DNA from: Escherichia coli
Lineage (GTDB): Bacteria; Pseudomonadota; Gammaproteobacteria; Enterobacterales; Enterobacteriaceae
Direction: 5' to 3' (one strand)
DNA length: 64,000 nucleotides
Assembly (NCBI RefSeq): GCF_013315695.1
Contig: NZ_CP054353.1
The translations under genes and the position numbers were made by a program. The notes below the pieces were generated by a model. It was not told the DNA's origin, ran no database searches, and saw only the letters and a list, made by a program, of their open reading frames with translations. This document shows, piece by piece, positions 25,764-28,713 of this stretch (within the stretch, counting starts at the first letter, position 1; every line of letters starts with the position of its first letter).

Positions 25764-25905
25764 GTCGCTTTTCCTTATGTTGATTAATTAATCGTTTACA
25801 GGATTTTTAAATCCCGTTTTTGCCTGTTTTGTGCGCACTTCATATATCGCGGCACGTTTTTTGCTCATTTACGGGATTTGTGAATCCCGTTTCTGTCTGT
25901 TTTTT
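25764..25905. promoter_or_regulatory. parC-like iteron region upstream of parM (overlaps the 3' end of gene A)
   Basis: Two ~36-bp direct repeats (25798..25830 and 25868..25900), each with an inverted repeat GGATTT..AAATCC and phased T-tracts about every 10-11 bp. Confidence 0.4.
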
Positions 25906-28713
25906 GTTTCCACTGGTCAGGCTACCCCGCAGCAGGTCTGCTTTGCGGCGGGCGCGTTCAGTGGTTTCACTGATTCTCTGTGCGTGCTCTGCGTCACGGA
26001 TGGCGTGCAGCATGTCAGAAAGCACGGTAACAGGGGTTTTCATGGTGTTCTGGTCCTGCTGAAGTGTGGATGCCAGGCGTGCGGCGGCTTCGGGGTCTGA
26101 TGCCCCCAGCTGTTCCAGATAGCTGGCGACCGGGTTATGGCGGATCTCCGTGCTGCTTACGCCGTGATTACGGCTCAGGCGCTGCCAGAGCTGCGTGATT
26201 CGGCTGTCCGGGCGGGTATCCGGTTTGCGTACAATTTCAAATCCCTGCGGTGCAATGATGCTGCCGTCAACGTACAGACTGCCGCCCCGTAACAGGTGCT
26301 GCATCTGCTGTTCACCAATATGCAGGCCGAGAGATTCAGCAGACTCCCGCCATTCTTTTGCGAGTAACTCGTGGTTATCAGGCAAAGGCTGTGGCTGTTT
26401 GCGGCTCTGTGTCCAGCTCTGCATTTCATAACTGCTGTTTTTGGCCTGTTTGTCACGCAGCGAACGCATCAGCGCCCGGCGTTCGTGCCGTTTCAGTGAG
26501 CGCATCCATTCATTCACTTCAATTTCAATGCCGTCAGGAAGCTGCGGCCACTGTGCTGGCCGTTCTTCCGGCTGTTCTGTCCCGTTGTTGTCCGTTTCCT
26601 GTACACGGGGACAGTTATTGCCACGAGTCCAAGGGGCGGCAGGGCCGCCCTGAAGGTCAAAACCATTTTCGCGGGCGCTGTCTTCCGCTTCCGGTTTGCG
26701 TCTTACCAGCTTCCAGTTATCCGGATGCGTGCATACGCGGGAAGACTCCCCAATGAGCGGCGACCAGATCCCGTAAATCTGTACGCTCTGTTCACCGTAA
26801 TCGTTCAGCTCATCTGCGAGGTCGTAGGCGGTGCGAATCAGGTAGTCTTTGCGTGGAACAAGTACGCCACCCTGTTTCTCAATGTAGGTGGCAAAACATC
26901 CGGCATCAGCGGCAGCGAGTACCGCGTCCATTGCGTCATCCTTCAGCCGTTGCGGGCCTTCCGGGTTGCGTGCCATCTGGCTGGCAAGGCGGCGCAGTTC
27001 ACGCCACACCTGACGGGAGGGGATACCAAAGAACTGGAACTGGCGGACCCGGTGAAGGCGCGCCCAGCCGATGGCGCGTTCCACGCTCTCGGCCATTGAT
27101 TTTCCGGTTTCGTGGTCAACGCGTGGCTTGCCCGTTTTCGGGTCGATGCCATCCACGGCGCGGCTGTCCAGGTTCTTTCCGATGTAGGTGGCGATGTAGC
27201 TGGTTGGTGTGCCTTTTGAGCCGTCTACGTACTCCGCCTTAAAACGCGGAGTTATGTCATCGCCCAGCTCGTGGCGGTCTTCCTGAATGGCAATATCGCA
27301 GACGTGGGACACGATGGTTTCAATCTCGTCCTGATGTGCAAAGACCATCATATGCCAGTGCACAGTGCCGTCATGGTGAGGCTCCACCGTGCGGATGCCA
27401 TACCAGCGCAGACCGTCGCGGTTCAGTTTTTTGCGGACCGCCGCAAAAAACGTGTTAACCAGGTAATCGCTGGAGTCGCGCATGGTGGCCCCGTTCCATT
27501 TGGGATTCGGATGACCGTTCTCCGTTGTTGCGTGGTATTTTGACGGGCAGGTGACAGTCAGAAACACCGCTCTGTCGCCACGGGCTTCGGCCAGAAGTTC
27601 CAGTCCCTTCATGGTGGCCATCATTTCTGCCTTACGGTGAACCGGGTTACTTACTCCCGCGTAATACACTGTCTCGAGATCAATCGTGAACCCGTCTTCG
27701 TTTTCCAGCATGAAACTTTTCAGGAAATCGCGTGTTTTCTCGCGCTGTGCGCGAAACTCGCTTAACGCGTCCTGGCTCAGATAGGGTGATGTTTTTCTGG
27801 AAACCAGACAGGCGGCGCGGAGTTGTTCTTCTCTCCACTCGCAACGTAACAGCCACAGTTTGCGTTTCCACCATTCCGCACAGGTCAGGCGAAGGATTGC
27901 GCCCGGCAGCAGCTCCGTGTCCGGTTCGTTCCTCCGGTCTTTGTCTGTTGTCAGTGCGTCATAATGTGGAGGCATGGCGTGCAGGTGTAACGCCATGCGG
28001 GCCAGCATCTGATACGCCTTCAGCGTTACATCCATGGTCAGTTCGCCATCAGTCGCACCAAAGCCATCGCAGAGTTTTTCGAAGGTGCTGCTGAACATCG
28101 CCGCCGTCATGGTGGCCAGCGTCTGTATCTGGTGTTTGTTGAGCTGCGGCAGGTAAAGCAAATCGTCCAGGCGTTCGCGTCCGGCAAGGGAGCGATAACC
28201 CGGTGTCAGCCAGCGGTGATCGGTGCGGTCCAGGCGTTCGAATATTTTGCGCAGGGTTCCGCGCGCGTAGCGTTCAGCCTGCCAGCTCTTTTTGCCTTTC
28301 TGGCGATCGGCTTCCTGTTTTTTGCGCAGGAAAGAGAGGTGGCGGCTCAGAGGTTCACGCAGATAAACGGGAAGCACCTTCAGTGTGGCAAAAGCACGGG
28401 CCACCGGGTCTTGTTCTGTTGCCTGACGCTTGCTGATGATGCTTTGTGCCAGCTTTTCACGCTGTCCGGCTTCCTCAAGGGATGCCATGAGTTTTTTACC
28501 CACGGTGGATTGTGCGAAAAAGGCTTCCTCCTTCGCTTCCTGTTCTTCCAGAGCCTTTTTGTCTGCCTCAAGGTAGTAACGGATGGCGCGTTGTAGGTCG
28601 GTTTCAGTTTCCTGCCTGTGCTCCGTAAATCTGGCCGGATCAATGGCTGGCCGTGGTTCATTCCAGCTCCATGCAAACTCACTCATGGCTGGTATCCCGT
28701 CACGCGCTGCCAC
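25840..28713 (-). CDS. A: Rolling-circle replication initiator A
   Basis: Contains HUH-like VHWHMMVF and a YIATYIGKN Tyr-containing motif; position as P2 gene A; true start may be the ATG at 28686. Confidence 0.85.
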   Translation of the reverse strand: MAARDGIPAMSEFAWSWNEPRPAIDPARFTEHRQETETDLQRAIRYYLEADKKALEEQEAKEEAFFAQSTVGKKLMASLEEAGQREKLAQSIISKRQATEQDPVARAFATLKVLPVYLREPLSRHLSFLRKKQEADRQKGKKSWQAERYARGTLRKIFERLDRTDHRWLTPGYRSLAGRERLDDLLYLPQLNKHQIQTLATMTAAMFSSTFEKLCDGFGATDGELTMDVTLKAYQMLARMALHLHAMPPHYDALTTDKDRRNEPDTELLPGAILRLTCAEWWKRKLWLLRCEWREEQLRAACLVSRKTSPYLSQDALSEFRAQREKTRDFLKSFMLENEDGFTIDLETVYYAGVSNPVHRKAEMMATMKGLELLAEARGDRAVFLTVTCPSKYHATTENGHPNPKWNGATMRDSSDYLVNTFFAAVRKKLNRDGLRWYGIRTVEPHHDGTVHWHMMVFAHQDEIETIVSHVCDIAIQEDRHELGDDITPRFKAEYVDGSKGTPTSYIATYIGKNLDSRAVDGIDPKTGKPRVDHETGKSMAESVERAIGWARLHRVRQFQFFGIPSRQVWRELRRLASQMARNPEGPQRLKDDAMDAVLAAADAGCFATYIEKQGGVLVPRKDYLIRTAYDLADELNDYGEQSVQIYGIWSPLIGESSRVCTHPDNWKLVRRKPEAEDSARENGFDLQGGPAAPWTRGNNCPRVQETDNNGTEQPEERPAQWPQLPDGIEIEVNEWMRSLKRHERRALMRSLRDKQAKNSSYEMQSWTQSRKQPQPLPDNHELLAKEWRESAESLGLHIGEQQMQHLLRGGSLYVDGSIIAPQGFEIVRKPDTRPDSRITQLWQRLSRNHGVSSTEIRHNPVASYLEQLGASDPEAAARLASTLQQDQNTMKTPVTVLSDMLHAIRDAEHAQRISETTERARRKADLLRGSLTSGNKKQTETGFTNPVNEQKTCRDI

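Follow-up and report, generated by a model that had tools for sequence, protein, structure and literature searches.

Lineage-typical replication initiator A of a P2-family prophage and its junction with an adjoining parMRC-type cassette in Escherichia coli

The window analyzed here, a 64-kb stretch of Escherichia coli DNA, contains a prophage whose predicted replication initiator gene A is longer than its P2 counterpart and has a parC-like repeat within its last codons. The locus raises the question of whether the extra length is peculiar to this copy, and whether the overlap physically couples replication and partition signals, as the sequence-only reading had suggested. The account that we consider well supported, short of certainty, is that A is typical of its lineage, that a parMRC cassette adjoins it with repeats that are most likely parC, and that the overlap is a by-product of the junction.

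Identity of gene A and its predicted origin

The A open reading frame occupied 25840–28713 on the complementary strand and gave 957 aa from a GTG at 28713 or 948 aa from an ATG at 28686, the two lengths that had been counted from the sequence. The ATG is the likelier start, which places gene A at 25840–28686 with its stop codon at 25840–25842. This ATG forms an ATGA overlap with the stop codon of the preceding ORF, as A of phage 186 does with orf84, and the 948-aa RefSeq CDS "replication endonuclease" of a 99.9% identical copy begins at the equivalent ATG. The product matched the full Pfam PF05840 Phage_GPA profile (positions 1–321) with 430.5 bits against a cutoff of 31.4, as well as PHROG 91 'nicking at origin of replication' (E=3e-275). 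The Pfam-defined catalytic core (27160–28134, complementary strand; residues 194–518 of the 957-aa ORF) was modeled by AF2 with pLDDT >90. It contained an HUH-type H443-W444-H445 motif and a Y497/Y501 pair (Y-x-x-x-Y; 948-aa numbering), all of them invariant in an alignment of 55 family sequences including P2 and 186. We take their counterparts in P2 to be the catalytic residues of the P2 literature. The GPA domain, HWH motif, tyrosine pair, and a conserved N-terminal WNxPR motif were shared with the A proteins of P2 and 186, with 31–34% identity over the core. A Foldseek search of the PDB with the whole A model returned no match at E <= 0.001; the best matches were HUH nucleases, AAV Rep among them, at weak values of about 0.06–0.5, the top one being a Helitron (E=0.058). 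A PDB sequence search with A yielded nothing useful.

A sequence homologous to the origin nick site of P2 and 186 (CCCCTTGGACTCGTGGCAATAACTGT; 26615–26645, complementary strand) could be located by alignment to the rep_origin features annotated in these two phages, with the predicted nick column at 26629–26630, in codon 686. The origin is thus predicted to lie within the coding sequence of A itself, as in P2 and 186, about two-thirds to four-fifths along the gene. The segment that holds it (26551–26685, complementary strand; residues 668–712) was predicted to be a disordered linker (pLDDT <50). In megablast comparison with Klebsiella P2-like phages, only 62 nt (26591–26652) were conserved across 4.7 kb. 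Taken together, the Pfam and PHROG matches, the invariant HWH and Y497/Y501 residues, and the origin homologue identify the ORF, at the level of sequence, as gene A of a P2-family prophage with an early region of P88/Xuanwuvirus type, and its product as a predicted HUH/two-tyrosine rolling-circle initiator.

Junction of gene A with the partition cassette

Two predicted partition genes lie downstream of A on the same strand. The first, parM (24804–25763), is predicted to encode an actin-like segregation ATPase, with matches to Pfam StbA_N (E=1.8e-82), to the ParM C-terminal domain (E=1e-68), and to the R1 ParM structure 1mwk (E=1.3e-92); its variants across 69 loci gave a pN/pS of 0.09. The second, parR (24488–24799), begins after a gap of 4 nt and is annotated as 312 nt in relatives. 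Its 103-aa product, a predicted centromere-binding adaptor, matched Pfam PF10784 Plasmid_stab_B (E=2.6e-23) and PHROG 2515 'partition protein', while a PDB sequence search with ParR gave nothing useful. No terminator-like site was found on the coding strand of the A–parM interval. Because of the R1 ParM match, the low pN/pS, and this uninterrupted coding strand, the par genes look functional. Co-transcription of parMR with A is probable.

Upstream of parM, a direct repeat of 42 nt was present in two copies (25792–25833 and 25865–25906), 83% identical and 73 nt apart. The proximal copy lies in the A–parM interval, with its end 28 nt before the parM ATG, and the 31-nt spacer between the copies (25834–25864) contains the A stop codon. 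Codon 927 of A falls in a AAACAAAAAAC stretch. The distal copy covers codons 927–941 of the 948, so the placement of a second parC-like repeat within the last codons of A was correct, and it stands beside a true ParM/ParR pair.

Comparison of relatives placed the boundary between the two elements. The window, P88, and two related loci (L049 and L055) share sequence from precisely the start of the distal repeat onward. L049 has an A of 871 aa with a separate 155-aa ORF after it, and L055 has an unrelated A of 773 aa with a 159-aa ORF after it; upstream of parM, both match the window only from AAAAAACAGACAGAAACGGGATT onward. Judged by this comparison, the last 22 codons of A (927–948; 25843–25908, complementary strand) are part of the parMRC cassette and not of A. 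These codons showed a variant pN/pS of 1.84 against 0.20–0.28 in the body of A, a raw value calculated from just two synonymous changes and 15 non-synonymous ones and uncorrected for phylogeny or recombination. Their pS was 0.15 against about 0.6–0.7 upstream, the pattern expected for constraint at the DNA level. The AF2 model predicted them to be disordered (pLDDT about 36), and indels change their frame in six relatives (L011, L014, L033, L046, L079, and phage Chuche), although those at homopolymers in draft assemblies may reflect sequencing errors. No constraint at the protein level was seen on these codons. The arrangement can be explained by a mobile type II partition cassette lying directly downstream of A, in the order of two 42-nt repeats, parM, and parR, with its left edge at the start of the distal repeat. 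Since the P88-type A frame has no stop before this edge, it runs 22 codons into the cassette and ends at the TGA in the inter-repeat spacer. In this account, the overlap is a by-product of the junction, and the tail that A gains from it would be disordered and dispensable.

The alternative that survives best is that the overlap is designed and functionally links replication with partition, which we consider unlikely. Assembly of ParR on parC could be gated by transcription or translation of A across the distal repeat, or the cassette-encoded tail or the helix within residues 869–926 could contact ParR or ParM, with the Par proteins stimulating nicking by A or recruiting new circles. Such a link would fit the same-strand location of A, parM, and parR without a terminator-like site in between, the distance of just about 720 bp between the origin and parC, and the retention of the arrangement in about one-quarter of complete E. 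coli genomes. Precedents also exist: in plasmid R1, ParM and ParR both bind TraI, an HUH relaxase, and stimulate it (PMC4949242), and a single intergenic region of SXT/R391 ICEs holds both srpC and oriT, the centromere adjoining the rolling-circle origin (PMC4489591). The same cassette-encoded peptide, moreover, ends three different upstream ORFs (A, the 155-aa ORF, and a 73-aa ORF), which a functional portable tail could produce; an open frame would also explain it. However, L049 and L055 carry this cassette apart from A, the overlapped codons are predicted to be disordered and have a pN/pS above 1, and the frameshifted tails include that of the phage record Chuche. As some 720 bp also separate the repeats from the origin at codon 686, a cassette junction is the best reading of the overlap. 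Of the proposed physical coupling, the proximity is real and co-transcription is probable, but the idea of coupling is weak, given the distance of the origin, the cassette boundary at the overlap, and the lack of constraint on the codons, and a functional link would be hypothetical. A reading of similarly low probability makes parMRC a working machine that segregates or positions the monomeric circles from A-driven rolling-circle replication and that may also be wired to A through co-transcription, ParR/ParM-stimulated nicking in the manner of R1 ParMR–TraI, or gating of centromere assembly by A expression. Within the junction account, ParMRC would serve to segregate or position the phage circle during its extrachromosomal phase.

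The repeats as a proposed centromere

Each repeat copy contains the 20-bp near-palindrome ACGGGATTnnnnAATCCCGT, at 25798–25817 in the proximal and 25871–25890 in the distal copy. Across the 64 kb of the window, it matched at these two places alone (0 and 1 mismatches), where 0.27 matches with up to three mismatches would be expected by chance. Among 63 distinct sequences, the cores CGGGA(T/C)T and AATCC(C/T)G were nearly invariant, the changes in the arms were single-sided with no compensatory pairs, and the repeats and parMR traveled as one block across differing upstream contexts. The repeats appear to behave as protein-binding sites. Most likely, the two copies are the halves of a parC centromere/operator, on which ParR dimers would assemble to capture ParM filaments and probably also to regulate parMR. 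In plasmid R1, parC contains the par promoter, which is autoregulated by ParR.

The layout resembles type II parMRC of R1 in that two blocks of repeated DNA stand directly upstream of parM and a small Plasmid_stab_B ParR directly downstream of it. In contrast to the 10 short direct iterons of R1 parC, the window has two 42-nt units with 20-bp palindromes, and its 146-bp leader (25764–25909) is without iteron similarity above chance or a consensus promoter. A likeness of the leader to the R1 iterons (AAACAAAACCC / AAAAACAACCC; PMC4949242) was rejected because 4 matches at >=8/11 were observed against 3.6 expected in shuffled sequences (p about 0.45). A scan of 24300–26300 for a consensus sigma-70 promoter found no site, and the best candidate by eye was a weak TTTAAA-17-ATTAAT with 8/12 positions. 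Covariation between ParR alleles and repeats was uninformative since all ParR variants, even the diverged ones, share an identical DNA-contacting N-terminal segment of 13–18 residues. A 26-codon ORF (MSKKRAAIYEVRTKQAKTGFKNPVND; 25788–25868, complementary strand) runs across the spacer and the proximal repeat; no Shine-Dalgarno sequence was seen for it, and it is probably not a gene.

A somewhat less probable alternative than designed coupling holds that the repeats are no centromere at all, being hairpin terminators or operators of another phage regulator that stand upstream of parM by chance. A consensus scan did flag the distal palindrome with its T-run as terminator-like on the plus strand, and the leader lacks above-chance R1 iteron similarity. 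On the coding strand, however, the sequence after the palindromes is A-rich and not T-rich, and no plus-strand gene has a transcript that needs terminating at the repeats. As the arm substitutions included no compensatory change and the coding strand has no T-run, the hairpin/terminator reading of the palindromes was rejected. The movement of the repeats with parMR as a block and the absence of the palindrome elsewhere in the window also speak against a chance placement.

Length, lineage, and spread of the arrangement

The A protein of P2 has 761 aa and that of 186 has 694 aa, so the 948-aa window protein is, as had been noted from its sequence, longer than P2 A, by 187 aa. Alignment to P2 and 186 A placed the extra residues and explains the length by ~70 aa of N-terminal helical hairpin, a loop of 8 aa (DPKTGKPR), and ~118 C-terminal residues, the final 22 of which are cassette-encoded. 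The N-terminal insertion (~residues 25–95; 28402–28614, complementary strand) was predicted as a two-helix hairpin (helices 30–59 and 61–90, pLDDT about 80–90). It is a mosaic segment in which the window differs from P88, and the DNA similarity to P88 ends at ~28365. Toward the C-terminus, a small conserved domain (residues 772–822; 26221–26373, complementary strand), which P2 A likewise has at its C-terminus, was predicted with a helix-helix-three-strand fold (pLDDT about 92–94). Residues 869–926 (25909–26082, complementary strand) form a lineage-specific tail, mostly one long predicted helix (885–924, pLDDT 60–76), with a variant pN/pS of 0.53; this tail is missing from the 871-aa A of L049. 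No homologue of it was found outside P88-type A, and past residue 868, only same-lineage fragments aligned among the representative proteins. The domain search that had been proposed for the extension found no Pfam domain above threshold, and only sub-threshold noise was obtained for residues ~691–948 and 1–119 at E up to 10. When the last 213 aa were used in a word-index search for homologues, same-lineage fragments alone were recovered, with no remote relatives and no stand-alone domain. The possibility that residues 869–926 are a fused remnant of the 155-aa ORF of L049 was rejected because only 21 cassette-encoded residues match that ORF.

The length proved to be normal for the clade, the outcome that had been named beforehand as counting against the sequence-only reading. 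Among 66 IMG/VR loci, A had 940 aa in 32, 946 aa in 15, 935 aa in four, and 941 aa in two, with 52 of the 66 at 935–946 aa. Annotated proteins have 938–948 aa (P88, 940; PhiR44_2, 946; Chuche, 938; E. coli A24, WP_201471884.1, 948), and the nearest 50%-identity clusters have 857, 857, 856, 868, and 902 aa, related clusters spanning 841–943 aa. A length of 948 aa is the norm for the P88/Xuanwuvirus-type lineage, and this variant of P2 gene A, typical of its lineage, had already been annotated. Although L049 has an 871-aa A and homopolymer indels occur in the region, the idea that sequencing error or pseudogenization removed the true stop of a ~870-aa gene is very improbable and effectively refuted by conservation, since an open frame of 935–948 aa is kept in isolated phages and >1000 complete genomes, residues 869–926 have a pN/pS below 1, and L049 A diverges from residue ~760 on instead of being merely truncated. 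With a lineage-normal length and a mere run-on of the last 22 codons into the repeat region, the finding is largely ordinary; the length and overlap of A, a lineage-typical variant and a junction effect, matter little.

The closest relatives were P88 and the Xuanwuvirus-type prophages (PhiR44_2, Chuche, E. coli A24), whose replication endonucleases are 90–97% identical with the same tail and which share the A–repeat–parM–parR order. Unlike in P88, the first ~107 residues of the window A follow the PhiR44_2/Chuche variant, and the structural module of the window prophage is divergent from that of these relatives (70–74% identical). In P2, A is followed by orf91/tin/old, whereas the window has parMRC at this place. 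The window ParM is only ~52% identical to the nearest plasmid ParMs, and in contrast to R1, the element that hosts the cassette is an integrating phage. Actin-like partition or positioning on normally integrated, transiently circular elements is represented by srpMRC of SXT/R391 ICEs (PMC4489591) and AlpAC of prophage CGP3 (PMC4446434); the Par proteins of the window, however, are of different lineages, and the partition role of the phage cassette is putative. A literature search on P88, Xuanwuvirus, or Peduoviridae with ParM found no paper on the cassette or its role. The locus is of modest interest in that the rolling-circle initiator of an integrating phage has as its neighbor an R1-type ParM/ParR pair that is strongly conserved and preceded by a distinct leader of two repeats. 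Should the cassette work on the phage genome in its transient circular form, tailed phages would join the SXT/R391 ICEs as integrating elements with active partition.

The window prophage is integrated in the E. coli chromosome beside btuCED, and its relatives encode an integrase, C repressor, and Cox. The same A–parMRC junction was found in 1371 of 5426 complete E. coli genomes, and 1531 of 1533 places in complete genomes of this species were chromosomal. The window copy is accordingly not a phage-plasmid in the sense of an element kept as a plasmid instead of being integrated. One 34.4-kb circular 'plasmid' record (NZ_CP148288.1) was a whole phage genome with integrase.

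Length and composition of the replication initiator A

The A ORF (25840..28713, minus strand) encodes 957 aa when counted from a GTG. An alternative start, the ATG at 28686, forms an ATGA overlap with the stop codon of the preceding ORF, and RefSeq uses the same ATG in E. coli A24, where a 99.9% identical copy bears the annotation "replication endonuclease" (948 aa). On these two grounds the product is likely 948 aa long, the numbering used here, and the range of 948–957 aa given by the sequence-only reading corresponds to the two starts. The product matched the whole Pfam Phage_GPA profile with 430 bits (cutoff, 31.4 bits) as well as PHROG 91, "nicking at origin of replication". 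A could thus be filed in the P2 GPA family, all features that can be assessed from sequence being present.

The sequence-only reading had also considered A longer than P2 A, proposing alignment and a domain search of the extension. A indeed exceeds its counterparts in P2 (761 aa) and 186 (694 aa). Alignment with P2, 186 and representatives, combined with an AlphaFold2 model (mean pLDDT 81), placed the extra residues in an N-terminal insert, a core loop and a C-terminal tail. The insert (approximately 70 residues, flanked by the conserved WNxPR motif of the N-terminus and the LPxFIR motif) is predicted to form a two-helix hairpin (helices 30–59 and 61–90) and is mosaic, the window carrying the PhiR44_2/Chuche variant and not that of P88. 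The loop comprises 8 aa (DPKTGKPR). P2 A ends shortly past the small conserved domain (window residues 772–822, pLDDT about 92–94). Beyond it, residues 831–868 are common to relatives of 841–871 aa, while residues 869–926 were seen, among the proteins compared, in P88-type proteins only and are modelled mostly as one long helix (885–924, pLDDT 60–76); residues 927–948 are disordered in the model (pLDDT about 36). Neither a Pfam domain nor a PDB sequence match emerged from searches with the extensions, and no remote homologue was recovered. One database protein of 373 aa (P0009), which carries a terminase large-subunit C-terminal domain (PF17289), matched 46% of the C-terminal 213 residues of A at 88% identity, and probably represents a chimeric or misassembled contig.

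Escherichia phages Chuche and PhiR44_2 shared 97% identity with the region 24400–29100, and approximately 82% of it matched P88 and other Xuanwuvirus records (Peduoviridae) at 94–97% identity; annotated A lengths in Chuche, PhiR44_2 and P88 are 938, 946 and 940 aa. ParM was present in 203 viral contigs of IMG/VR, from which 80 loci were fetched via ParM. Among the 66 with sufficient upstream sequence, A measured 940 aa in 32, 946 in 15, 935 in 4 and 941 in 2, the remaining copies being frameshifted, truncated or of another type. An exhaustive HMMER search (50%-identity representatives) gave a family of 2483 members, with lengths of approximately 450 to 943 aa among representatives, fragments left out; the nearest clusters measured 857, 857, 856, 868 and 902 aa. 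Of 5426 complete E. coli genomes, 1371 carried the 701-nt A/parM junction. Therefore, the length of A is real in comparison with P2, yet typical of its lineage and already annotated, which is the very outcome that the sequence-only reading had named as refuting its point.

The rep_origin features of P2 and 186 place the nick site within gene A. A homologue, CCCCTTGGACTCGTGGCAATAACTGT, was recognized at 26615–26645 by similarity to the P2/186 nick sequences, with the aligned nick column at 26629–26630 (codon 686). It coincides with a part of A coding for a predicted disordered linker (residues 668–712; 26551–26685, minus strand; pLDDT <50). Within the 4.7-kb megablast query, 26591–26652 (62 nt, 85%) was the sole part conserved in Klebsiella P2-like phages, in which the flanking DNA was no longer matched. 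The nick sequence clearly exemplifies a DNA signal set in a protein-tolerant segment.

Partition genes and the candidate centromere

The genes downstream of A are filed as a type II partition system, the centromere being only proposed. parM (24804–25763, minus strand), directly downstream of A, matched Pfam StbA_N (1.8e-82), the ParM C-terminal domain (1e-68) and R1 ParM structures (E=1.3e-92), and parR (24488–24799, minus strand; 103 aa) matched Plasmid_stab_B (2.6e-23). The cassette is probably functional, since the pN/pS of ParM (0.09) indicates strong purifying selection. A scan of the coding strand revealed no terminator-like site between A and parM, which makes it plausible that parMR would be expressed together with A while the phage genome replicates as a circle.

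Upstream of parM are two copies of a 42-nt direct repeat (25792–25833, proximal; 25865–25906, distal), 83% identical and 73 nt apart, each including the 20-bp near-palindrome ACGGGATTnnnnAATCCCGT. The near-palindrome had two matches in the whole 64-kb window, namely the repeats (0 and 1 mismatches), against a chance expectation of 0.27 at up to 3 mismatches. The repeats sit directly upstream of parM and move together with parMR, and hardly any variation is seen in their cores CGGGA(T/C)T and AATCC(C/T)G. Substitutions are one-sided and compensatory pairs are lacking, as would suit protein half-sites and not a selected hairpin. ParR alleles only 45–51% identical overall nevertheless share identical N-terminal 13–18 residues, presumably the DNA-reading strand. 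Taken together, the 42-nt repeats are likely to be parC. The resemblance of the leader to R1 iterons did not exceed chance, and a scan of the repeat region found no consensus promoter. Nearby plasmid loci (ParM about 52% identical) differ in having T-rich iterons of about 10–11 bp and no palindromes.

ParR was compared between the window and related loci L011, L016, L018, L022, L040, L043, L059, L061, L065, L070, L072, L078, L081 and L086. At least two allelic classes occur beside ParM of 98.7–100% identity: one 83–98% identical to the window ParR, two truncated copies excepted, and one 45–51% identical over residues about 19–103, with the same first 13–18 residues (MTTPTRRISFYLKPAAVK) in both. 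The divergence may affect the part that contacts ParM, or relate to incompatibility among co-resident prophages.

A 26-codon ORF (MSKKRAAIYEVRTKQAKTGFKNPVND; 25788–25868, minus strand) crosses the spacer and proximal repeat in the register that A uses on the distal repeat (..KQTETGFTNPVNE.. and ..KQAKTGFKNPVND). It is open in most relatives, is fused to A in L011 via a 1-nt deletion, and shows no visible Shine-Dalgarno sequence.

The junction between A and the cassette

The distal repeat spans A codons 927–941, and the A stop (25840–25842) falls within the 31-nt spacer, so the repeat does lie in the last codons as originally noticed. In related locus L049, a P88-like A stops earlier (871 aa) and a separate 155-aa ORF enters the distal repeat instead; in L055, the same cassette follows an unrelated A of 773 aa and an ORF of 159 aa. 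In a four-way DNA alignment, the sequences were unrelated up to AAAAAACAGACAGAAACGGGATT (146 nt ahead of the parM ATG), with which the distal repeat opens, and nearly identical onward. Similarity between the window A tail and the 155-aa ORF was confined to 21 cassette-encoded residues. Shared sequence starting at the distal repeat in these contexts points to distal repeat, spacer, proximal repeat, parM and parR as the mobile unit, and to the last 22 codons of A as cassette DNA. The 155-aa ORF (L049 3457–3924, plus strand, between A and the cassette) carries CxxC...CxxC motifs, gave no Pfam hit, and terminates in the cassette-encoded peptide KQTKTGFTNPVNEQKTRSDI.

Counting distinct variants over 63 distinct sequences, a method that ignores phylogeny, pN/pS was 0.28 for A codons 563–747, 0.20 for 748–868, 0.53 for 869–926 and 1.84 for 927–948, the last on small counts (2 synonymous, 15 non-synonymous). 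Synonymous diversity was 0.15 in codons 927–948 compared to about 0.6–0.7 elsewhere. This pattern, from few variants, is what would be expected under selection on the DNA and not the peptide. One-base indels in two A6 runs (25899–25909 and 25857–25864) shift the frame of the last 15–45 codons in about six relatives (L011, L014, L033, L046, L079 and phage Chuche, L003); these may be real variation, slippage or, for some, sequencing error.

A junction of A with a mobile parMRC cassette best accounts for the overlap, and would have left A with a dispensable tail. The sequence-only reading was accurate in its observation of a long A with a repeat in its last codons, and only partly so in interpreting this as physical coupling of replication and partition signals: the origin does lie near the distal repeat (about 720 bp, without overlap), but the overlap itself is better attributed to the cassette junction.

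The host prophage

The element is an integrating prophage. Genes for integrase, C repressor and Cox are found in its relatives, the window copy adjoins btuCED, and 1531 of 1533 occurrences in E. coli genomes were chromosomal. Two analogues are known: srpMRC of SXT/R391 ICEs, which stabilises the excised circular form and adjoins oriT (PMC4489591), and AlpAC of prophage CGP3 (PMC4446434). It is conceivable that the Par proteins and A are functionally linked, because R1 ParM and ParR stimulate the HUH relaxase TraI (PMC4949242). Functional coupling of rolling-circle initiation with actin-like partition in an integrating phage nevertheless seems improbable.

The 34.4-kb circular record NZ_CP148288.1 (L007) entered the database as an E. 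coli plasmid. It consists of an entire P88-like phage genome that includes integrase, A, parM and parR, and may stem from an excised or induced form caught during assembly, or reflect a true episomal state. Window 1–33700 is a mosaic prophage truncated by the window start, with an integrase near 33.5–33.7 kb, adjoining btuE/btuC/btuD. Its early region (24488–31967) is about 94–95% identical to PhiR44_2, and its structural genes (about 1–22900) merely about 69–75%, with a higher G+C (about 0.58–0.63). Between parR and the portal gene, a DUF3800 gene (268 aa; PHROG 3732; 23450–24256, plus strand) occupies the opposite strand. Chuche and E. coli A24 share it, whereas P88 and PhiR44_2 have other small ORFs in its place; its position looks like a variable cargo slot.
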